Below, in pieces: positions 1,823 through 23,949 of a DNA stretch of 64,000 nucleotides. The translations under genes and the position numbers were made by a program. The notes under the pieces are model-generated. The model searched no databases, had not been told where the DNA came from, and saw only the letters and a program-made list of their open reading frames with translations. The DNA comes from an uncultured delta proteobacterium. GTDB lineage: Bacteria; Myxococcota_A; Polyangia; Fen-1088. The stretch lies in contig CAWCMR010000020.1 of NCBI GenBank assembly GCA_963796685.1, positions 32,001 to 96,000 of the forward strand, written 5' to 3'. Position 1 is the first letter of the stretch; every line of letters begins with the position of its first letter.

Positions 1823-2970
1823 CTAAGGAATGCCTTGCGCGACCAGGCCGGCGGTCCACACGTCGGCCATGGGTTGCGAGCCCGTGGCGTTGGGGTGAAC
1901 GCCATCCGAGGTGTTGGTGGAATTGGGCGTGTAGCTCCCGGCTGGCTGCAGCGCGGCCCAGACGTTCACAACGTAGATCGGCGAAACGGCAGTGCTCTTG
2001 CCGGTGGCCCAGGTCGGGATTTGGGCGTTGAGGGCTTCGACCCGGGCCTCGCAGTCCGTGCAACCGCTGGGATTCATCGGCGTGATCTGGGCGACGAAAA
2101 AGATCACCCCGGGATTCTGACCGCGGAACTGGTCGACCACGAAGCTGTAGGCGCTGGTGATGTCGGCCGGTGCGATGTTGCTCCAGACGTCGTTGGTTCC
2201 GTATTCCATCAGGACGACATCGGGCTTTTCGGCGGCCCACGCCATCAGCTCGGTGAGGCTGCCCTTGTTCTGCGAAGCCTGGGCGTTCGAGGTCAGGTAG
2301 GTCACGAGGTAGCCGCCGTGACCCTCGGTTTGGACGTTGGCCACGCCGTTGCCGCAACTCTGGTTGTTCAGTACGGTACCCACGAAGGTGAAGTCGGTGT
2401 GGCCCTTGTCGATGCAGCTCCTTGGACAGGAGCTTGGGGTAGCACGTGGTGCCGGTGATGGAATCGCCGAGCGGCATGATCTGCCATGTGCCGGCGTGGG
2501 TCGAGCCGCCCGCGCCGGTCGTGCTTGTGGCACCGCCGCTGCCCTTGGATTCCCCCGGTCGTCGTGATGCCGCCGGAGGAACTTGCTCCGCCGGTGGCAC
2601 CACCCGCGTTGCTCGCGCCACCGAAACCTGCGGCACCTCCGGTCGATGAATCGCCGCCCGTGGTGGTCACGCCGCCAGCAGAAATTGCGCCACCGCTCGC
2701 CTTGCTACCGCCCAAGGAGGTCGTGCCACCAGAAGGCGCGACACCGCCTGAGCCGAGGGTGCCACCGTTCGACATTGTCCCACCTCCGCTACCCCCGCTT
2801 GCCTGCGTGCCCCCCGATCCTGTCGCGCCACCCACGTTGGTGGCGCCGCCGCTGCCGGGCGAACCTCCGCTTGCCAGGCCATCGCCGGTTGGTTCGCGGG
2901 TACAGGCGCCAGCGAGCCAGAGCAAGCCCAGGGCAATGAAAGTCCTTTGCAGGCAAGTGTTTCTCGGCAT
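1823..2970 (-). CDS. SGNH/GDSL hydrolase lipoprotein with Gly/Ser/Thr linker; two frameshifts (~2550, ~2414)
   Basis: Lipobox LAGAC; motifs IMPLGDSIT, EGHGG, GTND, DGVHPN are spread over three reading frames. Confidence 0.8.
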
Positions 2971-3048
2971 ATCGGCACCTTTTTCAAGCCTAACGCCCGC
3001 GTGAAGGCTTGTCATTCTCCATCCAGATTCTGGTGAGATTCTGGTGAG

Positions 3049-3077
3049 CTTACAATTTCTAGGCCGCGGCGTATAAT
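3049..3077 (+). promoter_or_regulatory. Putative sigma70-type promoter of the Cys-rich gene
   Basis: CTTACA-N17-TATAAT, with AGGAG before the ATG at 3119. Confidence 0.5.
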
Positions 3078-3118
3078 GGCGCCGGTCTCCCCCCGCCAAC
3101 GTTCTTAGGAGCTTAGCC

Positions 3119-5351
3119 ATGAAGAAGAATGTGCGTTCCGGATTGCATCTCGTCTCGGTGCCGGTCGGTTTGGTCCTCGCCTTCTTCATCCTTCAAGGCT
3201 GCAAGGGATCGACCAGCTCGCCGCCGTCCGGCGGAACGGGTGGCGATCCTCCAGCGTTGGGTGGCGGGGGCGAAGCGAGCAGCGCCACAGGAGGCGGAGG
3301 CAGCGGCGGCGTGAGCAGCGGCGGCTTGGGCACCGGTGGGGTCATCGGAACAGGGGGCAACACCGGCAAGGGCGGATCGGGTTCAGGCGGCGCGGGCAAG
3401 GGAGGCTCCGGCGGGACCACCGTCGTCGGAACCGCGTGCGGTGGTCCGGGACAGATCTGCTGCTCCGGCAACAGTTGCCGGAACAACGGCTGTTGCGCCT
3501 CCAATATCTGCGTTGCCGATGGCGCCTCGTGCCTGCCTCTGCCGGGAACCTGCAGCGCCGGCTCATGTAACACCGGGGCCTGCGGCGGCCCGGGCAAACC
3601 CTGTTGCCCGACGGGAACCAGTACGAGCGCAAGCTACTGTAGCGCTCCGGGCACGAAGTGTGTCTCCGGCATTTGTGGCTTGTGCGGAAACAACGCCGGC
3701 GATACCTGCTGCTACACCACGCCCGCCTCCTCGAGCAGCAGCACGACGACCGTGTGCCTGGGCAGCGGTTTGGTTTGCAGCAGCACATCTTCTTCGAGCG
3801 GTGTCTGTGCCACCTGCGGAACGCCGGGCAGCCCCTGCTGTCCGGGCAGCAAGTGCAGCGGCAATGCCTGCTGTTACAATGAACAATGCGTGGCCGAATC
3901 GGCGTCTTGCGGGCCCACGACGGCGGGGACCGGCGGGACGACCGGCACGAACCCCGGCGTGTGCGCGGCGGGGAAGTGTGCCGGCTGCGGCGCCTCGGGA
4001 CAGCCGTGCTGCGGCTCCACCACACCCAGCTGCGGCGCCGGCCTTTCCTGTCGCAACAGCGTCTGTTCGTCCTGCGGCGACCCGGGTGAGACGTGCTGTC
4101 CCGGCAGCAACGGCACGGATCGGTGCGTGGCTGGCTCGGTGTGCAACTCCACGTCGTCCACGGGTCTGTGCGCCCTGTGCGGTACCCCGGGTGCGCCTTG
4201 TTGCCCGGGCAATACTTGCAGCAGCGGTTGCTGCTTCAACGGCAGTCTGCCTGGCCGACGGCTCCAGCTGCAGCACCAGCTCGAGCTACACCTACGGTTC
4301 GTGTACTTCCGGGCGCTGCACCTGCGGTAACGCGGGCGAGCCGTGCTGCCCGACCAGCACCTTCCCGACCAGCACCGGCTGCGCGACCTATGACCTGAGC
4401 TGCACGGGCTCCGTCGGGTACAGCTCCTCGGTGTGCGCCGCCTGCGGCAAGACCGGTGGTCCATGTTGCGCGGGCAGCACTTGCACGGACGCCGGCACCC
4501 AGTGCCTGTCCGACAGCTCGACCGGCCTTTACACCTGCAAGCAGTGCGGAGGGACGGGCCAGCCGTGCTGCTCGACATCCTCGTTGTCCACGGCCACCGC
4601 GTGCAAGGATCCCACCAACCAGTGCTTGTACAACAGCTCGACCGGCAACTACACCTGCAGAACCTGCGGGGCCTTGGGTGAGACCTGCTGCTCGACCTCC
4701 TCGTCGTCCACCACCCCCGCGTGCAAGGATGCAACCGCGGCCTGCGACAGCTCGACGAGCATTTGCCAGGTGTGCGGCTCCGCCGGCGGCCCTTGTTGCG
4801 CCAACAATACGTGTAATGACGCCAACGCGATCTGCAAAAGCTCGCGCTGCACCGTGTGTGGCACGCCGGGCACCACGACCTCGACGGCAAGCCCGTGCTG
4901 TGCGGGCAACGCCTGCACGGGCGGGTGCTGTGTTACCCGCTACAGCACGACGTTCTCGTCCGGCAATCAAGTGTGCATGGCCGCCGGCGTAGCCTGCGAC
5001 ACCCTCTATTCAAGCACGACCAACCCCGTGTGCGACGTGACCACGGTGGCTGGCGGCTCGTGTACGGGCGGCACCCCGACCACGGCTTGCGGCGGCCTCG
5101 GCCAAGCCTGTTGCGTTTCGAGCTACTCTTCTTCGACGAGCTACTACTACTGTGGCGCCCCGGGCAGCCGTTGTATTTCCAGCACCTCATCAACCACGGG
5201 TAGCACGCAGTACCTGTGCACCGCGTGCGGCGACAAGGGCCAGCGCTGTTGCACCGATTCGTCGAGCTCGACCACCAGCTCGGCGATAGGTTGCAAGTCT
5301 CCCTACCTGTGCGCTTACGACTCGAGCACCGGATACTACTACTGCAACTAG
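3119..5351 (+). CDS. Large Cys-rich repeat lipoprotein (about 15 CGxxGxxCC units); frameshift ~4244
   Basis: Lipobox ILQGC and Gly linker; repeats continue from ORF 3119..4330 into ORF 3336..5351. Confidence 0.8.
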
Positions 5352-6898: not shown

Positions 6899-8002
6899 TT
6901 ACTTGGTGGGCAGCGCGACGGGACCGGCCCCGGCGATGAGCACGCGCTCGATCTCGCCCGCCGGGCCGCTGGCGCCGCCGGACTTCCATCGCTGCAGCGT
7001 GTGCCCGCTGGTATTCAACACGACGAGCTCGCTGCCGGTAGCCACCCACACCCGCCCCGACGAGTCGACGGCGATGTCGTTGATTCCGTTCGTGGAGATG
7101 GCTTCGCTCGTGCTCGCGTCGCCCGCTCCGTCGAGGCGGGCGATGACGATGGCCCTGCCGTCGGCGCTCGTGCCGGCAAGCAGGTTGGCTGCCCCCGCGC
7201 TTTGCAAATGGGCTTTGTCCGCGCGCCAGTGCGAGGGCTGCCAACCCGCTTCCGTGAACACGAAGCAGCCCGCGAGGTAGCAGGCGATCAACCCTGGTTT
7301 CGAGACGAGCAAGGAGAGCGGAAAGGCAGGCGCCGACTTTGTCTCGGTGTCGGCCTGGTCGTTCTCGGACACTGCGGGCGAATCGAGTCGGGTCCACCTA
7401 CCACCCGTCACGCGCCAAAGGCCGTTCCAACTCGCCACCCATACCGCGCGTCCGTCGGTCACGATGTCGAGCAGACGGTTGTCGTCGAAGGCGCCCGCGA
7501 GGCTGTTGCGGGTGCGAGTGGTCTTCCAGCGGATGCCGTCGTAGCGCACGACGCTGCCGTGGTCGTCGTTGATGGTCCACACGTCGGTGGGCGAGCGGAT
7601 GGCCAGCTTGGCGAAGCTCTCATGGTTGAGGGTGACCGCCTTTCCATGGACGATTCGCACCACGCCCTCGCCGCGCAAGCTTGCCCACAGCATGCCTTCG
7701 CCGTCGAGCTGCATGTCGCGCAAGGTGGCCTGCGTCTTCAGGACCGTGGATATCTCGCCGTTCCGCAGGCGCTGGATGCCGACGCCTTTCACGAAGACAT
7801 AGGCGGCGTCCGTATGTTCGTCGACTGCCACCTCGGGCGCGGCGTCTGCAACCGCGGGCCGCGGGGCCGAGCTCTTGCGCTTGGACTGCGACTTGCCGTG
7901 GCTGCTCGACATGGCCCCGAAGAGCCCGACGGCGACCACCAGCAGCCCAAGCGAAACCCTCGGACCAGGTTGGCCGCGTCGACGGTGCTCGCTCCTCCAC
8001 AT
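6899..8002 (-). CDS. Secreted/anchored beta-propeller-like protein
   Basis: N-terminal hydrophobic segment; repeated blades such as INDIAVDSSGRVWVAT and DGRAVWVASWNGLW. Confidence 0.65.
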   Translation of the reverse strand: MWRSEHRRRGQPGPRVSLGLLVVAVGLFGAMSSSHGKSQSKRKSSAPRPAVADAAPEVAVDEHTDAAYVFVKGVGIQRLRNGEISTVLKTQATLRDMQLDGEGMLWASLRGEGVVRIVHGKAVTLNHESFAKLAIRSPTDVWTINDDHGSVVRYDGIRWKTTRTRNSLAGAFDDNRLLDIVTDGRAVWVASWNGLWRVTGGRWTRLDSPAVSENDQADTETKSAPAFPLSLLVSKPGLIACYLAGCFVFTEAGWQPSHWRADKAHLQSAGAANLLAGTSADGRAIVIARLDGAGDASTSEAISTNGINDIAVDSSGRVWVATGSELVVLNTSGHTLQRWKSGGASGPAGEIERVLIAGAGPVALPTK

Positions 8003-8022
8003 CGCGGCAGTATATACCTATC

Positions 8023-8337
8023 GAAATGGGAACCCTGGGAGGGTTCCCAACCCCTCCCGCGCTCTGGCTTCGCCGGGCAAAGCCCGGCTCCGCCTACGCG
8101 GTAATGGGAACCCTGGGAGGCTCGGCACCCGCCAGCCCGCCCTACCACCCCCGCGCTACGCGCGGCCTCGCCAACCCCTCCCGCGCTCTGGCGGAGGCGC
8201 GAGGGGCGCGTCCGAAGGACGCGAGGGGGAGGGCGTGGAGGTGTAGGTCCCGAAGCACCGACGAAGTCGGTGGGCAAAGCCCGGCTCCGCCTACGCGGTA
8301 ATGGGAACCCTGGGAGGCTCGGCACCCGCCAGCCCGC
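8023..8337 (+). repeat. REP-like structured repeat cluster (interrupted by transposon)
   Basis: Three ATGGGAACCCTGGGAGG starts and multiple hairpins; homologous to 13318-13430, 23554-23949 (reverse) and 29478-29555. Confidence 0.9.
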
Positions 8338-8461
8338 GGCTTTGCCCAATGATTGAGCTTGACGCAGGAATTGCTGGGCAGGCGGGGGAATTATTGGGCA
8401 GACGTGATGCTGAACGGATGACGCGTAGCTGTGACTGGCGGGTGGGCGGTAGGGTTGAGCC

Positions 8462-9115
8462 ATGGTGGACATCTACGGCTTCCTGGTCGCCGTCCTCGAC
8501 CATTGGATCGGACTCATGAGCGGCATAGTCGCGCTTGTGTTCGCAATATGGCTTGACCGTACCAAACGGGCGTCAATTCCATCAAAGGTCTTCTGGGGAA
8601 TCGGAATCCTGTGCATTTTTGGAGCTTTCTATCAGACCTGGAAAGACGAGCATGTTGCACGTCTCAAAGCAGATGACGGTCCAAGGCTGGTCGGAGAATT
8701 ATCTGCCTTCTTTGAGTTTGGACCTGGAGAGTTGGACGGTGGGCCGGTAGTGGCTGTTTTGATGAAAATACGTAACCTCGGAACTCCAAGCAGCGCGGAC
8801 GCCTACCGGGTTTCCTTCAAGCTAGGTAACGCGGAGCGAACCATGGATATTGTCGTTGGTGATTCGCAAGAGAAGGTTGTTACGACCTTGAAGTCACGAG
8901 GATACAGGTCGACAGCAATGGACGTGGCTCTTCCCCTGCATTTTCCCGCAATCCAGCGAGGAGAAACGCTGAGCGGATACATCCTGGTCACGACCGGAGA
9001 GCTGACAAAAACAGAATTTGAGCAAGGCGAGCTGACGGTCGGATTCCGAGACGTCCTTGGACAACGGCATTTTGCGTCTGGCTCTTATCGAACCATGGCA
9101 AAACTCGGGCCGTGA
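8462..9115 (+). CDS. Hypothetical membrane protein (transposon cargo)
   Basis: 217 aa; two N-terminal hydrophobic helices, then a soluble beta-rich region. Confidence 0.7.
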   Translation: MVDIYGFLVAVLDHWIGLMSGIVALVFAIWLDRTKRASIPSKVFWGIGILCIFGAFYQTWKDEHVARLKADDGPRLVGELSAFFEFGPGELDGGPVVAVLMKIRNLGTPSSADAYRVSFKLGNAERTMDIVVGDSQEKVVTTLKSRGYRSTAMDVALPLHFPAIQRGETLSGYILVTTGELTKTEFEQGELTVGFRDVLGQRHFASGSYRTMAKLGP

Positions 9116-9382
9116 CTACGTTGGTCCTCTCCCGCAGTGCGGGCACGTCCCCTTGACCGGGTACTTCCCAGCGAGCAGGTCGTCCATCCCGACTCCGGCA
9201 AGGCGCGCTACCCGCACCATCATGGATGCGCTCACAGGGTCGTGGCCTAGGAGAACGCCGCGCATGCTCTCGTAGGTGAAGTGCAGGGCCTTGGCAAGCA
9301 GGTCGATCTTGCCGAAGCGAATCCGCAGGAAGCGGAGCGCTACCCGAACATTCCGTTGCTCCTCTGGCGTGAGGTCGCTCAT
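9116..9382 (-). CDS. Small XRE/Cro-like HTH protein with CPHCG tail
   Basis: MSDLTPEEQRNVRVAL...LAKAL...VARLAGVGMDDLLAG...CPHCG; starts 5 bp after the transposase stop. Confidence 0.7.
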   Translation of the reverse strand: MSDLTPEEQRNVRVALRFLRIRFGKIDLLAKALHFTYESMRGVLLGHDPVSASMMVRVARLAGVGMDDLLAGKYPVKGTCPHCGRGPT

Positions 9383-9387
9383 GCCGC

Positions 9388-10614
9388 TCACGCCGCCACC
9401 GTTCCCAAGAAGCTCGGCTCGATGCCCAGCCGGTGCATCGCCTGGACGAGCACCGAAAGGTTCTGGCAGAGCGCCTTGCACAGAATCTCGTTCACCTGGG
9501 CGGTGAAGGTCTTGGAGCGCACGGCATGACCGAACTTCCGCTTGACCGCCGAGAAGGTGCTCTCGATGTTGTTGCGCTTTCCGTAGGCGGCCAGGAACTC
9601 CTCTTGCTTGAACATGAAGACGGCGTGCATCTTGCGCCACGCGGGCGAGCCGTCGCTCTGGCTGTTGACCTTGAAGGGCACGAAGGGAGCGGCGCCAGCG
9701 GCTTCGATGGCGGCGAGGTTTTCGTGCGCGAGGTACGCCTTGTCGGCTGAAACCTCGGCGATGCCGAAGTGCTGCTTGGTGGCTGCGACCAATCCCGGAA
9801 GCTCGGGGCAGTCCGCGCCTTCGCTCGTGGTGACCTTGACCGATGTGATGACCTGGGTCGTGGTCCCGACCATCGCGTGCGCCTTGAGCCACGTCGCCTT
9901 CTTCATTTCCTTCCCGTACTTGGCATCGAACCAGCGGCGGTAGACGGCGGCGCTGAAACCCGTGGAGTCGACCGCGAAGCTCGTCTCGATGCTCGCCAGC
10001 GGCGCCGCGCTCTTCTCGATGAGGCTGGTCAGGATGGCCGTCATCTCAGGCTTCTCGAACGCGGCCAAGACGCTGTTGTAGTGCGGGGTTCGGGTCATGT
10101 TGCCAGCTTCGGCGCTGTCTTTGATGTCCGTGCTCGCTCGGCGAGCCGACATCGTGGTGTAGACTTTCAAGACCATCGCGTAGACCGCATCGGACATTGG
10201 GATCGGCTTGGGACCGCGGCCAGGGTGGGCTGGCGTCTGGATACCGTCGCAGAGGCCACGTAGCAGGGCCTGGACGGTCTCCTTCTCACCGACCTGGGCA
10301 GCGTTGTAGGCCGACCAGTCGCGCTCGGTGGTGTGGCTGTAGCTGAAAGATTGGGTCACGGTCTGGTTTCCGTGGGAGTCGGTCTCGACGGTCTGCGCGA
10401 ACGAAATCGCCCACTGGTGCTTGCAGCGGCAGCGGCGAAGCTCGAAGTCGGGACAGGTGCAGGTCTTTGCGGCGGTATTGACGACGTAGCCGCCAGCGTT
10501 ATGCGTCTGCGATGGGACAAGCCAGGTCACGCCAGCGATGTGCTTGATCCGGCGGTCGTTGGAAAGGATGCGTCCGCGCTCTTGCCGAAGGTCCGTTTCG
10601 TTCGTCGTGTCCAT
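9388..10614 (-). CDS. DDE transposase with N-terminal SWIM zinc finger
   Basis: SWIM CTCPDF-x-CRCKH; catalytic AVDSTGF and ADKAY; YGKRNNIESTFSAVK fits Y-2-R-3-E-6-K. Confidence 0.92.
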   Translation of the reverse strand: MDTTNETDLRQERGRILSNDRRIKHIAGVTWLVPSQTHNAGGYVVNTAAKTCTCPDFELRRCRCKHQWAISFAQTVETDSHGNQTVTQSFSYSHTTERDWSAYNAAQVGEKETVQALLRGLCDGIQTPAHPGRGPKPIPMSDAVYAMVLKVYTTMSARRASTDIKDSAEAGNMTRTPHYNSVLAAFEKPEMTAILTSLIEKSAAPLASIETSFAVDSTGFSAAVYRRWFDAKYGKEMKKATWLKAHAMVGTTTQVITSVKVTTSEGADCPELPGLVAATKQHFGIAEVSADKAYLAHENLAAIEAAGAAPFVPFKVNSQSDGSPAWRKMHAVFMFKQEEFLAAYGKRNNIESTFSAVKRKFGHAVRSKTFTAQVNEILCKALCQNLSVLVQAMHRLGIEPSFLGTVAA

Positions 10615-10622
10615 GTGGATAG

Positions 10623-10642
10623 TATTACCTAGCTAAGTAATA
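10623..10642. promoter_or_regulatory. 20-bp palindrome (putative operator) upstream of the transposase
   Basis: TATTACCTAGCTAAGTAATA, one mismatched pair, in an AT-rich divergent spacer. Confidence 0.55.
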
Positions 10643-10719
10643 TTAGCAAGGACAATCTACAGAGCAATAGTAGAAAGGTTTACTTTACTACGGAGGAGCG
10701 GGCGTGTATCCTGGCGGGC

Positions 10720-10902
10720 ATGGCTGAAATCATGATCAAGGTGCCGGGCTACCGCTGCGAGCGCTGCGGCCACGAGTGGGTGGCCAGGGCGTCGCGCAAC
10801 GCGCCGCAAGCGAAGAAAGGCGAGACTGCGCGCCCAAGGCTGTGCCCATCATGCAAGAGTGCATGGTGGGACGTAGCCCCGAAGAGCGAAGCGAAAAAGT
10901 AA
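10720..10902 (+). CDS. Small C4 zinc-ribbon protein
   Basis: CERCGHEW...CPSCKSAWW, 60 aa, divergent from the transposase. Confidence 0.7.
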   Translation: MAEIMIKVPGYRCERCGHEWVARASRNAPQAKKGETARPRLCPSCKSAWWDVAPKSEAKK

Positions 10903-10910
10903 CCCGTTGG

Positions 10911-12050
10911 TTACTTCACAAGACGGATAGAATCTCCTGGATTTCCAGGCGTCGGTTGTATCCGATACGACGCAAGCAACTCCGGCGTGTTCCAGTGGGC
11001 GAGATCGGCCAACTGGTTGACGGTGTATCCGAGGGTTTCTGTGTGGAAGTCGAGCATCTCTTGAAGCGTTCTCGGTATTTCGCGAGCTGGCTCCAACTCT
11101 GCTGGCTCACGCATTCGATACCCCATTTTTGCAATCTGAACCCATAGGTATCGAGCTTGCGGTTCTGTTATGGTGCCGAGATTCTCGGCCCGTTTTAGAA
11201 GGGCCTGCATTGATACCTTCCAATAGGGCTTCATCGAGGCCAGCTTTTGCACGGTAAGATTGTGGAGTTGGCTTCGAATTTCTTCGGCCGGCATCAGGAA
11301 CTCGGCAGCAAAGGCGTTGGCCTCGTCTTCGATGTGAGGTGACAGCGTGGCATGCATAACCATGTGCCCGATCTCGTGGGCGAGCGTCAGGCGTTCGCGA
11401 TCTTGGGGGATTGTCTCATTCACAAAGAACATCGGCGGCAAGCCGGGAACCCACCTGCTTACAGCATCAACAAGGTTGGTCCCGAAAGCGAACCTCACGA
11501 CTACCCCGCCGGCCTCCTCGATGGCGTCAACCACACTCGCGACTGGCCCCTTTGGCAAGTTCCATGAGCTTCTCACCGCATGTGCGATCTCGGATGGAGA
11601 TCCTCCGAACTCCTCCGGATCCAATCGAGGAAACTTCTCTTCTTCAAGTTCGGCGCTCTTGAGGAAAGAAAATACGTGGGCCATGCGGATGTTTATCTGA
11701 GCATGGATGCGCGCCATTTCCCGCGCTGATGTCGCCTTACGCTTGCGATGATAGAACTCGCTCGTGCTCGGCCCAAAGATGCGGAACTCTTGCGAGAAGA
11801 AGCTCTCGGGATAGTCAAGCTCCGTGGCCAATGTCGACACCAGTTGTAGGGGAACTGGAGCATGTCCAGTCTCTATCTTCGATAGCCTTCCTTGAGAAAT
11901 GTTCAGTCTTTCCGCAAGCTCCTTCTGTGTCATCCCGCGCGACTCTCGCGCAAGGACGACCATCTCGGGTGTTATCGATTTCCAGAATCCGCCATTCGAG
12001 TCGTTCCCGTCGTCACTTCTTCTTGTTTGATTCATCTGTTCTATCGACAT
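10911..12050 (-). CDS. XRE-HTH / ImmA-IrrE (M78, COG2856) metallopeptidase fusion
   Basis: ARESRGMTQKELAERLNISQGRLSKIETG; RLTLAHEIGH (HExxH); EANAFAAEFLMP; start uncertain (12050 or 12035). Confidence 0.92.
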   Translation of the reverse strand: MSIEQMNQTRRSDDGNDSNGGFWKSITPEMVVLARESRGMTQKELAERLNISQGRLSKIETGHAPVPLQLVSTLATELDYPESFFSQEFRIFGPSTSEFYHRKRKATSAREMARIHAQINIRMAHVFSFLKSAELEEEKFPRLDPEEFGGSPSEIAHAVRSSWNLPKGPVASVVDAIEEAGGVVVRFAFGTNLVDAVSRWVPGLPPMFFVNETIPQDRERLTLAHEIGHMVMHATLSPHIEDEANAFAAEFLMPAEEIRSQLHNLTVQKLASMKPYWKVSMQALLKRAENLGTITEPQARYLWVQIAKMGYRMREPAELEPAREIPRTLQEMLDFHTETLGYTVNQLADLAHWNTPELLASYRIQPTPGNPGDSIRLVK

Positions 12051-12639
12051 CCGCGGCCTCCTGTTTTCTAGGCTTGACGCGGCGTTTTGCGCCCTTATCT
12101 GGTTGTTCCTGTGGAATCGGAATAACTTGTGCCCCACTGGGCGGTACGATCTGCATTGTCCAGTGCGGAGGGTTCTTCCCGTTGGGACAGGTAAGCCATA
12201 TCTCTGACGTCAAAAGCTCCGCTTGCTTCTCCTGTCGATATCCAAGGTGTAGGTTCGTTGGATCTGGAACTCCTTCCAAGGTGAGCTGACCTGCGTTCTT
12301 CAAGAAGGAAAACGTTTGCTGGGTCATCACGTTGGAGGTGCGAAAGTTTCGATCGAGCTTCTTTAACTTGATCTGGTACTTGTCTTCAACCGTCGCCACG
12401 AAGAGTTTCGATTTTCTCTCGAAGCACCTCACCCCTTCCGGATTCCCATCTGGGAAAGCCTGCTCCATATGCCACCGCATGAGATCGTGGATGAGCGATG
12501 CAATGGACCTGCTGGACATCTTGTGCCGAAGTCCCCGATAGTCCGCGACGAACTCTTTGAGTGCCGCGTGGACCACATCATGAAGCCTCGTAAGAACAGG
12601 CTTCAGATCCTTCTTCGCGGTAGCCACAGAACGAACCAT
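12013..12639 (-). CDS. Hypothetical protein, putative toxin partner of the HTH-peptidase
   Basis: About 208 aa, RBS GAGGTG; overlaps the downstream peptidase gene; IKLKKL...SNVMTQ segment. Confidence 0.75.
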   Translation of the reverse strand: MVRSVATAKKDLKPVLTRLHDVVHAALKEFVADYRGLRHKMSSRSIASLIHDLMRWHMEQAFPDGNPEGVRCFERKSKLFVATVEDKYQIKLKKLDRNFRTSNVMTQQTFSFLKNAGQLTLEGVPDPTNLHLGYRQEKQAELLTSEIWLTCPNGKNPPHWTMQIVPPSGAQVIPIPQEQPDKGAKRRVKPRKQEAADVDRTDESNKKK

Positions 12640-12836
12640 CACTCACCTCAAATTTGTTTCATCCAAGGTACCATGGGAACACACAAACGCGCATAAAATA
12701 TTCCTAAAATATTCCATGTTGGTGTAAGTATTTGTTTTTGAAGTCTTTTTTCGCATCGCCGCAATGACATTTGGTACTATTGCGTTATGCTACCACGCCA
12801 TCTTGCGGATAGTCAGAATCGCGAGACAATGGCGAT

Positions 12837-13229
12837 ATGAGAAAGGTAGCTTGGCTTGCGCTGCCGCTGATCTTTGGCTGCACCACTCTCTCTCCGGAGC
12901 AACGCCGGGAACGAGACGAGGAGAATCAGCGGAGGGCCATGCGGCAGGAAATGGCCCAAGAACAGGCCAACAGGTGTCTTCAGGGGATGCCGATCCTTCG
13001 TGGCGATCCTCCCTACCAGTACCGCGTGATACAGGTGATCGAGGCTCAAGATGAAAGGGAACTCGTACAGGCTGCCTGCCAAGCGGGAGCGGATGCCGTG
13101 ATCTCAATCTTCACAGACAACGAAGAGACCACCACTACCGTCGGGGGCGGCCCCTATTTCGTTCGGGGTCGAACGAAGACCAAACACGCGCCGACGTTCG
13201 TCGGTCGCCTCATCGTGTACGCGCGGTGA
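12837..13229 (+). CDS. Hypothetical lipoprotein (transposon cargo)
   Basis: Lipobox IFGC; YRVIQVI...ACQAGADAVI resembles YbjQ/RcsF-like folds. Confidence 0.7.
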   Translation: MRKVAWLALPLIFGCTTLSPEQRRERDEENQRRAMRQEMAQEQANRCLQGMPILRGDPPYQYRVIQVIEAQDERELVQAACQAGADAVISIFTDNEETTTTVGGGPYFVRGRTKTKHAPTFVGRLIVYAR

Positions 13230-13317
13230 GCCTCGTTTTCTGAATTATTGGGCAGCCCGCCAAATTCGCCCGAATTAAAAGGCAGCTAGGCCGAAAAGCG
13301 AATCATTGGGCAAAGCC

Positions 13318-13430
13318 CCAGCCCGCCCTACCACCCCCGCGCTACGCGCGGCCTCGCCAACCCCTCGGCCCCTCCCCGCCACCCTCCTCCCCGCTCGCTT
13401 CGCTCGGCCTCGCGCGCTCTGGCTTCGCCA
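13318..13430 (+). repeat. Distal half of the interrupted REP-like repeat
   Basis: CCAGCCCGCCCTACCACCCCCGCGCTACGCGCGGCCTCGCCAACCCCTC is identical to 8132-8180. Confidence 0.9.
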
Positions 13431-13436
13431 TCGCGC

Positions 13437-14336
13437 CTAGGCGTTGCCGGCTCGGTAGGCGCCGGGCGAAACGCCGAAGCTCTTGCGAAAGACCTTGCAG
13501 AAGTAGTTGGCGTCACCGAACCCGCACTGCTCGGCGACTTTCTTGACCGTGAATCGGCTGCCGGCGATCAGCCGCATGGCCTCTTCAAGCCGTAGGCTGG
13601 CCAGGTAGCGACCGGGCGAGATCCCGCGCACTTTCTCGAACTGTCTGGAAAAGTGGAAGCGGCTCATCTTTGCGACACGGGCCATGTCGTCGACCCCGAT
13701 GGGCCGGGCGAGATTGAGCTGGCAGAACTTCTCGACGTCCAGGACGAAGGCCGGCACCGGTTGCGCCGACGGGGAGAGCCCACCGGCGACCTCCGTGCTC
13801 TGGCTCTGCAATGCCATGACGATGGCCCAGGCCAGCTCGGAAGATCGGTAGGACGATTCAATCTTGCCTTCAAGGGCGGTCGCGCACGCCTCCGCGGCGC
13901 GCTCCAGTGCGGGCGAGCTCTCGGCAAGCGCGATGATCGGGCCCGACTTCTCGATCATCCCCCGAACACCCCGCACGGCTTCGATCCCGCTCAGCAGGAC
14001 GTAGAAGAACTCCCAGCGTTCACCTTCCTCGATCCAATAGCGGTGCTTGTGCGGGAAGTGGAGCAGCATGGCCTGTCCCGGCTCCACGAACATTTGGTGG
14101 TCCTGGAATCGAAGTCTCCCCCGCCCACTCAGGGTGTACTGGATCAGCGCGAGCTCGGCATTGCCGCGCCGCCAGCCATCCCAATCGTAGCTGGGATCGT
14201 TCTCCTCTTTGAAGCCCGCGCTGTAGATGAGCGCTGGCAAAGGTCCGTGCAGGTTGGGAAACAGCAGGGTCTCCCGATGGCCCATTTGGTAGAGCCGCTC
14301 GATGCCTGAAAGACCCGTCAGCGTGGCTCCACTCAT
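13437..14336 (-). CDS. AraC-family transcriptional regulator
   Basis: N-terminal cupin (QYTLSGRG); C-terminal MSRFHFSRQF and CGFGDANYFCKVFRK. Confidence 0.92.
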   Translation of the reverse strand: MSGATLTGLSGIERLYQMGHRETLLFPNLHGPLPALIYSAGFKEENDPSYDWDGWRRGNAELALIQYTLSGRGRLRFQDHQMFVEPGQAMLLHFPHKHRYWIEEGERWEFFYVLLSGIEAVRGVRGMIEKSGPIIALAESSPALERAAEACATALEGKIESSYRSSELAWAIVMALQSQSTEVAGGLSPSAQPVPAFVLDVEKFCQLNLARPIGVDDMARVAKMSRFHFSRQFEKVRGISPGRYLASLRLEEAMRLIAGSRFTVKKVAEQCGFGDANYFCKVFRKSFGVSPGAYRAGNA

Positions 14337-14659
14337 GGTGGCTCCGTCCTCACACGGGGGCAGGTCTGGCCCGAGGGACTGGCCTGCAGGAAGTTCCGCG
14401 GATTGTGCGCTGAGCATAGGATTTCCTTTCAGCGCGGTGCGTGATGCGGGCGCCACGAACCCACGGGGTCGCTCGCCGCCTCGTGTTTTGCCGAGCGATT
14501 TCTCGCATGCCTCGTTCATGACCCGTTCGACCTCTCGTACCTCGCTCCCTGTGAATTCCCTCAACTCCCATCACTGATCATGGAGGTTTGCCCTTCGACG
14601 TCTTGCTGACTCGGCGGGTCTTTGACGCCCAGGCCCATGTGCCTGAGCCGACGGATGGG

Positions 14660-16222
14660 TTATAGGCGGCTGGCGTAGTCGATCTTCATCTGATCGTAGA
14701 GCGCCAGGTCGGGCTGGGCGGTGTAGGTGGTGCCCGATCGTCTGAGCAGGTCGTGCCCGGTGTTCCAGTCGCCCTGCGTGGTCGGCTCCCAGTTGAAGGT
14801 GCCGATGCCCTGGTCGTTGGCAAGGCCGTAGACCACATCGTTGATCTCGCGTTGCATGGGGCCGTACTCGGCCGCGAAGAACTTGATCTTGGGGTACTTG
14901 GTGGCGAGCCCGGTGAAGGTGTTCGTCCAGCCGGTCTTGGTATTCGTCGTGCTGTTGGGGTCGCCCTGGTACTTTTGATAGCACGACTCGCCGAAGGCAT
15001 CGAACACCACGCCCTGTTTGATGGCGTTGTCGATCCAATCGGTGGTGGTGGCCAGGGCCGCGCCCGTCTTGTCCGTCGGCTTGTCGCCACCGCGATCGAT
15101 GTGGCACGAGATGAGGATGGTGGTGTCCACGTCCTTGACGCCTTGAATGCCGGCCTTCAGCAGGGTGCCGAGGTTGGTCCAGTTGGAAGTGCTGCCAGTG
15201 ATTTTGTTGTTTCCCGTGGGCTGACCGCCGCTGTCGCAAACGTGGATCAGCATGCCGGGCGTGGTTTCGTTTCCGATTTGCACCATGTCGGGTCGGGCGC
15301 CGCCAGCGACCAGCTTGGCGATGGCGTCCTTGGTATAGTCGTGCACGGCGGTGGCCAGGTCGGCGATGGTGGTGAAGCTCTGCCACGCCACGGGGACGCA
15401 CTGCTTGCCCGGATCGGCCCAGTTGTCGCTGAAGTGGAAGTCGACCAAGAGGCCCATTCCCGCGTCCTTCACTTGCTTGCCGAAGGCCACGGTGTGGGTG
15501 ATGTCGTCGTAACCGTTGGTCTTGTCGTAGCCATCGGCCGCCCTGGGATCGACGAAGGTGCGCAAGCGGACGGCATTGAATCCGTGCGACTTCATGATGG
15601 TGAGCAGGTTGGCCCGCGTGGCATCGGGGGCAACCTCTTGATCGGTCACGTCCGCACCCAGGAAGTACGAGGCCGAGAAAGCGGTCGAGGAACCGCCTGC
15701 GCCGGTCGCGCCGCCCGTGTCAGTCACGCCGCCCGTAGCCGTCGCCCCGCCTATGCCAAGAGCGCCGCCGGTGTCTTTGGCGCCACCCGTGCTGATTGTC
15801 CCACCGGTCGCACTTGCCCCGCCTGTTCCCTTGGCGCCGCCGCTCCCGACTGCGCCGCCGCTCGCGCTGGCACCGCCCGAGCCCTTGTTTCCGCCTGTCG
15901 CCGCGTTTCCGCCGCTGCCGGTCGCACCGCCAGTTTCTATTGCTCCGCCCGAGCCCTTGGCACCGCCCGTGGCCGGGGGGGCGCCAGCTGCGCCACCCGA
16001 CCCGGTCGCCCCTCCCCGGGCCCTGCTCGAGCTGGTGGTGCCTCCCAAGCTCACCGCGCCGCCCGAACCGGTCGAGCCGCCGGCACCTCCGCTGGTCGTC
16101 GCGCCGCCAGAGCTGGTAGATCCCCCGCTGCCCCCGCTGCCGTTGGTCGAGCAGGCGGCAAGGAAGGCCGCGAGAGCAATGAGCGAGAGGGCACGAAGCC
16201 GAGGAATGGGTTGGGAATGCAT
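14660..16222 (-). CDS. GH53 arabinogalactan endo-beta-1,4-galactanase lipoprotein with Gly/Thr linker
   Basis: Lipobox LAAC; VRLRTFVDP, DFHFSDNWADPGKQ, MVQIGNET. Confidence 0.9.
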   Translation of the reverse strand: MHSQPIPRLRALSLIALAAFLAACSTNGSGGSGGSTSSGGATTSGGAGGSTGSGGAVSLGGTTSSSRARGGATGSGGAAGAPPATGGAKGSGGAIETGGATGSGGNAATGGNKGSGGASASGGAVGSGGAKGTGGASATGGTISTGGAKDTGGALGIGGATATGGVTDTGGATGAGGSSTAFSASYFLGADVTDQEVAPDATRANLLTIMKSHGFNAVRLRTFVDPRAADGYDKTNGYDDITHTVAFGKQVKDAGMGLLVDFHFSDNWADPGKQCVPVAWQSFTTIADLATAVHDYTKDAIAKLVAGGARPDMVQIGNETTPGMLIHVCDSGGQPTGNNKITGSTSNWTNLGTLLKAGIQGVKDVDTTILISCHIDRGGDKPTDKTGAALATTTDWIDNAIKQGVVFDAFGESCYQKYQGDPNSTTNTKTGWTNTFTGLATKYPKIKFFAAEYGPMQREINDVVYGLANDQGIGTFNWEPTTQGDWNTGHDLLRRSGTTYTAQPDLALYDQMKIDYASRL

Positions 16223-23553: not shown

Positions 23554-23949
23554 CGAGGTCGCGCGAAGCGCGGGGGAGGCAGGGTGGGAGGCAGGTGCCG
23601 AGCCTCCCAGGGTTCCCATCACCCGCGTAGGCGGAGCCGAGCTTTGCTCGGCGAAGCCAGAGCGCGGGAGGGTTTGGCGAGGTCGCGCGAAGCGCGGGGG
23701 AGGCAGGGTGGGAGGCAGGTGCCGAGCCTCCCAGGGTTCCCATCACCCGCGTAGGCGGAGCCGAGCTTTGCTCGGCGAAGCCAGAGCGCGGGAGGGTTTG
23801 GCGAGGTCGCGCGAAGCGCGGGGGAGGCAGGGTGGGAGGCAGGTGCCGAGCCTCCCAGGGTTCCCATCACCCGCGTAGGCGGAGCCGAGCTTTGCTCGGC
23901 GAAGCCAGAGCGCGGGAGGGTTTGGGAACCCTCCCAGGGTTCCCATTTC
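23554..23949 (-). repeat. Tandem array of three identical 124-bp REP-like units plus terminal hairpin
   Basis: Units start at 23554, 23678 and 23802; ends with GGGAACCCTCCCAGGGTTCCC; lies between convergent genes. Confidence 0.95.

Follow-up and report, generated by a model that had tools for sequence, protein, structure and literature searches.

The segment examined here raises the question of whether genes enclosed by insertion-sequence-like ends reflect a single capture by an ordinary insertion sequence (IS) or the cargo of a transposon family that habitually carries such genes. It lies at 8338-13317 of a 64,000-nt stretch of DNA from the assembly of an uncultured delta proteobacterium (GCA_963796685.1, contig CAWCMR010000020.1), which we analyzed at its full length and refer to as the window, and it measures 4980 bp from end to end. 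We conclude that this segment is very probably an autonomous unit transposon, or "transporter IS", belonging to a distinct and large family whose transposase joins a SWIM zinc finger to an IS5-superfamily DDE/YREK catalytic domain and whose nearest curated relative is the IS903 group.

The ends and target site of the element define its boundaries to the base pair. Both ends carry the terminal inverted repeat GGCTTTGCCCAATGATT, complementary at 17/17 positions, and are flanked by the exact 9-bp direct repeat CCAGCCCGC (Table 1). An initial annotation, made from the letters of the window, had proposed these perfect ends and this duplication and had also stated that removing the element and one duplication restores a repeat identical to a neighboring copy; all three proposals hold. 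The host repeat is interrupted by the element (8267-8337 and 13318-13366), and the rebuilt empty site matches the intact neighbor over 106 nt (57 nt on the left and 40 nt on the right of the 9-nt site, plus the site itself) with 0 mismatches. When up to three mismatches are allowed, GGCTTTGCCCAATGATT has three matches in the window vs. 0.15 expected, a count reached in 0/100 shuffles; the third match is a 3-mismatch site inside the host repeat. With up to two mismatches, the only matches in the whole 7.3-Mb genome are the element's own two ends, which indicates that solo ends and miniature derivatives are absent. The G+C content within the element is 0.48-0.645, compared with 0.62-0.71 outside. 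Tandem Repeats Finder found no repeats over 7800-13600, an Rfam scan of 7000-15000 gave no match, and a scan for promoters and terminators returned counts equal to those in shuffles. A composite of two separate elements is ruled out by the single 9-bp duplication and the conserved layout described below, and an integrase-driven island is unlikely given that no other recombinase appeared in Pfam, NCBIfam, or PADLOC scans of the open reading frames (ORFs).

The transposase gene occupies the middle of the element, as the initial annotation had described; its ORF is intact and is the only intact transposase ORF present, accompanied by six other plausible ORFs. Pfam recognizes DDE_Tnp_1 in the protein (1.4e-18) and, at residues 49-70, SWIM (PF04434), with 20.9 bits against a gathering cut-off of 19.6. 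In an alignment of 36 relatives that are 61-92% identical to the window protein, the SWIM ligands C52, C54, C64, and H66 (CxCxnCxH signature) are invariant, as are the triad D216, D291, and E351 and the motif Y344-R347-E351-K358 (Y-2-R-3-E-6-K). The Pfam matches and invariant residues bear out the earlier assignment of a SWIM finger and an IS5-type DDE domain to one protein, and the N-terminal finger is predicted to bind zinc. NCBIfam models of IS families are built on ISfinder families, and the best of them for this transposase, NF033579 (IS5 family), scores 123.7 bits, below its cut-off of 140. All 10 of the 10 other family members compared with the same model also fall below 140 (104-131 bits), while classical IS5-family transposases reach 384 (ISEc35, 305 aa) and 352 (a Klebsiella plasmid transposase, 322 aa). 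The window transposase is 25% identical to that of ISEc35 over 304 aa, and 72 family members part from two classical IS5-family outgroups on a long branch with full support in a quick maximum-likelihood tree. The AlphaFold model of the protein (pLDDT 76.5) returned only generic DDE matches in Foldseek (ISCth4, Mu, and Tn5, with TM ≤0.39), which do not help to place the family. Five relatives of 460-630 aa (P0142, P0191, P0198, P0202, and P0237) match the profile only from about position 90 and apparently have, where the SWIM region would be, an N-terminus that is longer or of another kind.

To delimit relatives of the element, we fetched four genome loci, the best 80 of 533 metagenome loci, 25 IMG/VR loci, and two near-complete-genome loci, and asked whether each full-length transposase match was surrounded by a GGCTTTG-like tip (≤1 mismatch), 20-nt inverted ends (≤6 mismatches), and an outer direct repeat of 8-9 nt (≤1 mismatch). 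Thirty of the 78 loci with a full-length match passed, corresponding to 28 distinct elements including that of the window; none of the 78 passed in any of five flank shuffles, nor when right flanks were swapped between loci. Among loci with at least 3 kb on both sides, 13/20 passed, as did 14 of the 21 full-length IMG/VR loci and both near-complete genomes, whose elements measure 9491 and 9320 bp. Altogether, 44 elements were delimited (that of the window and 43 others), spanning 2483-9491 bp with a median of 4784. The initial annotation had set against its own proposal the case of homologs with inverted repeats tight around the transposase; this arrangement was found in 0/44 elements, the transposase gene being 1.2 kb and the 43 further elements measuring 2.5-9.5 kb end to end. 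The proposed class of IS903-like transporter elements is supported by the GGCTTTG-type ends, 9-bp duplications, and cargo of 43 relatives. The 25 IMG/VR relatives (L110-L134) sit on contigs filed as viral, some of 100-600 kb, and are viral here by filing only.

The ends of the family share an asymmetric, repeated structure. In the window, the subterminal repeats of the right end lie ~31 and ~51 nt from the tip and copy the inverted repeat's inner part, facing the other way from the terminal copy, while those of the left end run in the same orientation as the terminal repeat. On the left side of the delimited elements, repeats of the inner 12 nt occur near +25 and +45, sometimes also +65, and are oriented like the tip; on the right side, they occur ~31 and ~51 nt inward and are reversed relative to that tip. 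Interior copies number 0-5 per element, mostly 0. These multi-site asymmetric ends suggest that each end is bound by several protomers or by an accessory DNA-binding protein.

Two small genes accompany the transposase gene. A zinc-ribbon gene was detected by tblastn in 29/84 loci, 5' of the transposase gene and on the opposite strand; its four Cys are invariant in the 29 sequences, and the protein gives weak Zn-ribbon Pfam matches. A helix-turn-helix (HTH) gene of the XRE/Cro type was detected in the same way just 3' of the transposase gene in 35/84 loci. The model of the HTH protein (pLDDT 93.6) shows a five-helix XRE/Cro-type domain, with best fold matches to ClgR, C.BclI, DdrO, and the 434 repressor (TM ~0.55-0.6, E ~0.02), and its alignment retains a C-terminal CxxC. 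The occurrence of this gene follows the transposase tree: it is present in 31 of the 32 rows outside a clade of 40 (29 in the sister clade and three basal) and in 0/40 within that clade, the sole exception outside being a contig that ends at the transposase gene. Within the clade of 40, the distance from the 3' end of the transposase gene to the right tip is often 39-63 nt. A predicted complex of the transposase and the HTH protein scored 0.09 against a mark of 0.32, which is evidence neither way. The ORF listed at 9116-9892 (minus strand) overlaps the transposase gene, the real HTH gene being its last ~88 codons only. Similar frames, open ~85-170 codons further 5' over the 3' part of the transposase gene, are seen in all three loci compared, L004 (10978-11502), L005 (9708-10232), and the window, and could be G+C-rich shadow frames or a frameshifted transposase-HTH fusion.

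Comparison with relatives separates this module from the cargo. Between the window element and L004, L005, L011, and L024, whose transposases are 75-79% identical to its own, DNA homology is confined to a core and the ends. The core, at ~2417-4190 of the element, holds the zinc-ribbon, transposase, and HTH genes and is shared in part or whole with all four; the right end (4914-4980) is likewise detected with all four, and the left end (1-76) with L004 only. Between core and ends, the elements are unrelated (these stretches measure 2.3 and 0.7 kb in the window), from which we conclude that true cargo occupies two variable bays. In the orientation of the transposase, the layout is thus left end, cargo bay 1, divergent zinc-ribbon gene, transposase, HTH gene, cargo bay 2, and right end. 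Of the earlier claim of six passenger ORFs around the transposase, the number of further ORFs stands, but the zinc-ribbon and XRE-type HTH genes are conserved genes of the transposition module.

Table 1. Positions of the ends, target site, and genes of the transposon in the window
Feature	Position	Strand	Remarks
Terminal inverted repeat GGCTTTGCCCAATGATT	8338-8354	+	End 3' of the transposase gene; right end in transposase orientation
Terminal inverted repeat GGCTTTGCCCAATGATT	13301-13317	-	End 5' of the transposase gene; left end in transposase orientation
Target-site duplication CCAGCCCGC, 9 bp, copy 1	8329-8337		
Target-site duplication CCAGCCCGC, 9 bp, copy 2	13318-13326		
Intact neighboring copy of host intergenic repeat	8075-8180		Model of the empty site, with the site at 8132-8140
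Subterminal repeats, right end	8368-8381 and 8388-8401	-	CTGCCCAGCAATTC and CTGCCCAATAATTC on the minus strand
Subterminal repeats, left end	13242-13285	-	13242-13255 is an exact copy of 8388-8401; 13272-13285 is a degenerate copy
Transposase, 408 aa	9388-10614	-	N-terminal SWIM zinc finger and IS5-type DDE domain
XRE/Cro-type HTH gene, ~88 aa	9116-9382	-	C-terminal CPHCG tail; 6 nt past the transposase stop; start codon uncertain
Zinc-ribbon gene, 60 aa	10720-10902	+	CxxC...CxxC; divergent from the transposase gene
Cargo bay 2, 217-aa ORF	8462-9115	+	No significant family match; no counterpart in related elements
Cargo bay 1, HTH_3 and Peptidase_M78 (ImmA/IrrE) protein	10911-12137	-	Probable RmrA-type antitoxin; listed ORF 408 aa, true start probably internal
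Cargo bay 1, 209-aa protein	12013-12642	-	Directly 5' of rmrA and overlapping it; candidate toxin partner (RmrT-like)
Cargo bay 1, 130-aa ORF	12837-13229	+	No family match; lipoprotein-like N-terminal signal, judged by eye

To characterize what the family carries, we scanned 119 heuristic ORFs, each ≥100 aa, from 32 elements. They hit only 38 Pfam families between them, and many cargo ORFs have none. At E ≤ 1e-5, N6_Mtase was found in five ORFs; DNA_methylase, N6_N4_Mtase, Methylase_S, Eco57I, Peptidase_M78, and HTH_3 in two each; and DruA, RE_XamI, Vsr, RE_NgoFVII_C, AAA_21, AAA_15, DUF87/HerA, DUF3800, SocA_Panacea, and P63C in one each. PADLOC matched methyltransferase models in up to eight cargo ORFs and RmrA in two. 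Individual elements carry type IIG-like methylase-specificity fusions (L017, L070, L069, and L065), a methylase-Mrr fusion (L061), NurA, HerA, and DruA (L078), or a ParA-like ATPase with a Panacea-domain protein (L005). The 7.4-kb L004 holds other transposition genes nested in its cargo bays, namely an IS3-type orfA/orfB pair (HTH_Tnp_1 and rve) and a 480-aa UPF0236-like transposase (8037-9479, 12234-13459). The cargo of the family is varied and, by these counts within the elements, rich in restriction-modification and other defense genes. Elements L050, L053, and L055 have near-identical transposases and carry cargo on different sides, indicating fast cargo turnover.

The family is widespread in sequence databases and sparse in individual genomes. 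A word-indexed search gave 3477 relatives (~400 aa) at E ≤ 0.001 among 8000 scored candidates, and a profile search of 1.84 billion representatives gave 8719 at E ≤ 0.001, 4217 at 1e-10, and 1314 at 1e-30; among the 120 top matches and 10 clusters, every source name is plain "transposase". The DNA around relatives is 30-68% G+C, and record labels include Polyangia, other Proteobacteria, and one Aenigmarchaeota archaeon. Among 401 genomes of the window's phylum, eight have a match at E ≤ 1e-40, a single match each, and no relative above 31% identity was found on plasmids (72,556) or phages (50,697). One match per positive genome, together with the lack of plasmid or phage relatives above that identity, points to a rare, low-copy chromosomal transposon rather than a proliferating insertion sequence.

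The history of the element in its host was examined in the assembly (26 contigs, 88.6% complete, 7.3 Mb), where the element and its transposase are single-copy, and in related genomes. The genes that flank it are 5422 bp apart here, vs. 274 bp in G002 and 187 bp in G001, both of the same genus. G002 is 88% identical at the DNA level, and its intergenic sequence between the flanking orthologs differs from that of the window, so that what this comparison establishes is that the element is absent, not that an exact empty site exists. The initial annotation had suggested looking for empty sites in related genomes; in G001 and G002 the element is absent between the same two genes. The sequencing-run data comprise three metagenome runs, each with a small share (0.05-0.08) of the stretch, and no RNA run is listed. 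Contigs from these three runs offered no usable bridge over the empty site; the joints seen had <30 nt per side, lay in the host repeat, and were left uncounted. A 2120-nt contig from the sediment metagenome run X3 covers 10577-12674 at ~90% identity (200 differences), spanning the zinc-ribbon gene, rmrA, and the 209-aa gene as far as the start of the transposase gene, which reveals that a sister copy of the same cargo arrangement exists elsewhere. The perfect ends, perfect duplication, lower G+C content, and absence from congeners point to a fairly recent, undated horizontal arrival; the description of the element as "recently active" in the initial annotation is an inference from the perfect ends and congener absence.

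The insertion sites reveal no clear target motif, the consensus from 44 sites showing only a G/C-rich duplication. Many insertions lie in repeats of the host. The host genus has a dispersed intergenic repeat in units of ~80-200 nt, often arrayed, with tens of matches per genome (G000-G012), which in the window occupies 8020-8337, 13318-13435, and also ~23554-23949. It holds the hairpin-like CCGGGCAAAGCCCGG; read on the opposite strand, this sequence includes the transposon tip's first 10 nt. The sequence GGCTTTGCCC occurs five times in the window vs. 0.26 expected. In 4/44 elements (that of the window, L004, L022, and L081), the 100 nt next to the junction contain an 8-nt copy of the tip, GGCTTTGC; the density is 0.047 per 100 nt near the junction vs. 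0.0055 at 100-1500 nt and 0 for a reversed-motif control. These numbers are small and may hint that end-like sequences attract insertion. Three elements, those of the window, L004, and L024/L006, occupy different positions within one myxobacterial repeat family, and L030 and L014 lie in short tandem repeats. Of four related elements inside another repeat, L044, L050, and L055 share a near-identical GGGGTACCCC-type palindrome as their site, and L053 occupies a GGGGTGTCCC variant. Insertion in host repeats could reflect a target preference or merely tolerated sites.

Cargo bay 1 of the window element contains a probable defense module. The product of 10911-12137 matches 14 PADLOC RmrA models (best 1.9e-61) and, in Pfam, Peptidase_M78 (8.5e-17) and HTH_3 (2.6e-12), and is a probable RosmerTA-type antitoxin RmrA. 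According to PMC10440598, RmrA antitoxins contain an ImmA-type protease domain, frequently preceded by a small HTH at the N-terminus, and are paired with varied toxins of no known family. The window cargo resembles RosmerTA in its strong RmrA match and in the 209-aa gene of no family directly upstream, which is from its position a plausible candidate for the toxin partner; it differs in that this candidate falls outside the RmrT models. The 209-aa protein has only 15 homologs, all unnamed or "hypothetical", and its atlas clusters are likewise all hypothetical; the closest homolog, at 91% identity, is likewise on a contig of 2120 nt. A RosmerTA-like pair would give the host a putative defense or addiction function and would thereby help to retain a low-copy element.

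Based on these results and on IS903 as a model, we propose that the transposase would bind the inner part of the terminal repeat and its subterminal copies, probably through its N-terminal region, and would then, in the manner of IS903, cut at the GG tips and insert with a stagger of 9 bp. A regulatory or assisting role in this step is proposed for the zinc-ribbon and HTH proteins. The element presumably entered this lineage by horizontal transfer and, once the lineage had split from the sampled congeners, inserted in an intergenic repeat of the host.

Other explanations of the locus must be weighed against an autonomous unit transposon of a cargo-carrying family. The GGCTTTG ends, the 9-bp duplication, and the YREK motif all resemble the IS903 group and would fit an ordinary insertion sequence of that group with a one-off capture of neighboring genes, rather than a class; however, all 44 delimited elements are at least 2.5 kb long, 11/11 members tested score 104-131 bits on NF033579 (<140) vs. 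352 and 384 for the classical enzymes, the branch to the outgroups is long, and the SWIM finger and zinc-ribbon gene are conserved in the family, making a single capture extremely improbable. It is also conceivable that the element is a dead or domesticated relic, inserted once and now immobile, with genes kept for cargo or regulatory use, as its single copy here and the one match in every positive genome of the phylum sample would allow. Against such a relic stand the perfect ends and duplication, the intact transposase ORF with every catalytic residue and zinc ligand, the absence of the element from congeners at this locus, and, elsewhere in the family, the near-identical transposases of L050, L053, and L055 with cargo on different sides and related elements at many sites. 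The last two observations argue for ongoing mobility in the family, and we regard a relic as unlikely. Finally, the anatomy may be right and the family already catalogued in ISfinder, TnCentral, or a paper, a prospect that we consider doubtful, though of appreciable weight. The transporter-IS concept is established (PMC9330008), and the two databases lie outside our comparison; on the other hand, the 120 top matches and 10 clusters bear the plain name "transposase", the NCBIfam IS-family models all score below cut-off, no plasmid or phage record has a relative above 31% identity, and full-text searches, with few subscription journals among the papers covered, found no description.

Several observations weigh against the reading of the element as one of a uniformly built transposon family. 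An end pair is missing from 48/78 loci, mostly on short contigs, and 7/20 loci with at least 3 kb on both sides and 7/21 IMG/VR loci also fail the strict test, from which it follows that the end rule does not cover every relative; some may be decayed, larger than the flanks covered, or built differently. Of the seven loci that fail despite at least 3 kb on both sides, three (L014, L011, and L084) pair only under looser criteria; together with L017, they have good end pairs but either lack a strict duplication or exceed the mismatch limit, and nine elements need an offset of 1-2 nt at one junction. The cargo gene calls come from a simple ORF heuristic with a frame-composition filter against antisense shadow ORFs, and the 209-aa partner has no match to RmrT in PADLOC, nor any in Pfam or NCBIfam. 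In the host, the element is single-copy, and no reads with the filled plus the empty site were found. The full-text search, which covered few subscription journals and left ISfinder and TnCentral outside the comparison, found no description of a SWIM-DDE cargo architecture. Taking the autonomous unit transposon as our reading of the locus, we are about equally inclined to accept and to doubt a broader account of its family. By this account, a large family of unit transposons in prokaryotes, as yet unnamed and comprising 1314 clusters (50% identity, E ≤ 1e-30), would have branched from IS903-like insertion sequences by gaining a SWIM N-terminus, a divergent zinc-ribbon gene, an XRE-type HTH partner in one clade, multi-site asymmetric ends, and two cargo bays. 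Its main role at present would be to ferry defense genes, among them those for restriction-modification and toxin-antitoxin systems, at low copy number across distant bacteria and possibly archaea, and it would tend to land in intergenic repeats, some of them with tip-like sequence.

Defense genes move fast between microbes, and few compact vehicles for them have been defined at base-pair resolution. Members of the family are small (2.5-9.5 kb), have exactly defined boundaries, and encode one catalytic protein along with a tiny accessory protein or two, which makes them a tractable case for studying the change from an insertion sequence to a cargo carrier, the refilling of cargo bays, and multi-site end recognition by SWIM, zinc-ribbon, and HTH modules. 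With the conserved ends and the 9-bp duplication, cargo can also be delimited in metagenomes by a simple rule, and this cargo is a source of candidate defense genes. For the host genome alone, the finding is modest: one recent horizontal acquisition with a likely RosmerTA-type module. The interest lies in mobile-element and defense-system research, where the anatomy is well supported and the mechanism would follow by analogy with IS903.

Among known systems, the Tn3 family has a TnpA of ~1000 aa, inverted repeats of ~38 bp, a 5-bp duplication, and a resolvase with a res site, and the window element, with its 408-aa IS5-type enzyme, 17-bp repeats, and 9-bp duplication, does not belong to it; no resolvase appeared among its ORFs in Pfam, NCBIfam, or PADLOC scans. 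PIF/Harbinger transposases are eukaryotic, related to IS5, and need a separate small DNA-binding protein, which the HTH gene downstream of the window transposase may parallel; they make 3-bp duplications. The eukaryotic MULE transposases also have a SWIM finger, a likeness by analogy, since theirs is C-terminal to a different catalytic domain and that of the window transposase is N-terminal; MULE duplications are 8-11 bp. We know of no cargo bays in either group. The ends of Tn7 contain several repeated sites, and the window family shares with Tn7-like transposons such asymmetric, multi-site ends. Further likenesses are the low copy number and a variable cargo with many genes for restriction-modification and other defense systems (PMC8649781). 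Unlike Tn7-like transposons, the window family has no homologs of TnsA, TnsB, or TnsC and relies on a single IS5-type DDE enzyme, makes a duplication of 9 rather than 5 bp, is much smaller, and shows no attachment-site targeting.

The closest comparison is with the IS903 group, for which GGC(T)TTG ends and a 9-bp duplication are defining features. The ends of ISEc35 read GGCGTTGTTG.../GGCCTTGTTG..., or GGCGTTGTTGCTCAAATC and GGCCTTGTTGATCAAATC, and the window family has the same GGCTTTG-type tips, the 9-bp duplication, and a DDE domain with Y-2-R-3-E-6-K; its best NCBIfam model is also the one matched by ISEc35. The IS903 kinship claimed in the initial annotation is in keeping with these agreements, IS903-group transposases being the nearest curated relatives. 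The differences are equally clear. Classical members such as ISEc35 (~1.05 kb) consist of one transposase of 305-322 aa and no cargo, whereas the window transposase has an additional SWIM-finger N-terminus of ~100 aa, 25% identity, and a score on NF033579 below the cut-off. The family further differs in its 1-8 kb of cargo, in having several subterminal repeats per element, and in a conserved accessory gene or pair of such genes. To our knowledge, IS903 lacks multi-site asymmetric ends. With neither the curated model nor the ~1-kb single-gene layout satisfied, the family falls outside two features of IS903-group membership. Transporter ISs (tISs) are known as sporadic members of IS families that are otherwise free of cargo. 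According to PMC9330008, a tIS is an IS derivative with passenger genes inside one inverted-repeat pair that moves as a unit, and the window element has the generic anatomy of a tIS or unit transposon, one repeat pair and one duplication enclosing a transposase and unrelated genes. What distinguishes the window family from other tISs is that 44/44 delimited members carry cargo, together with accessory genes of their own and two defined bays.

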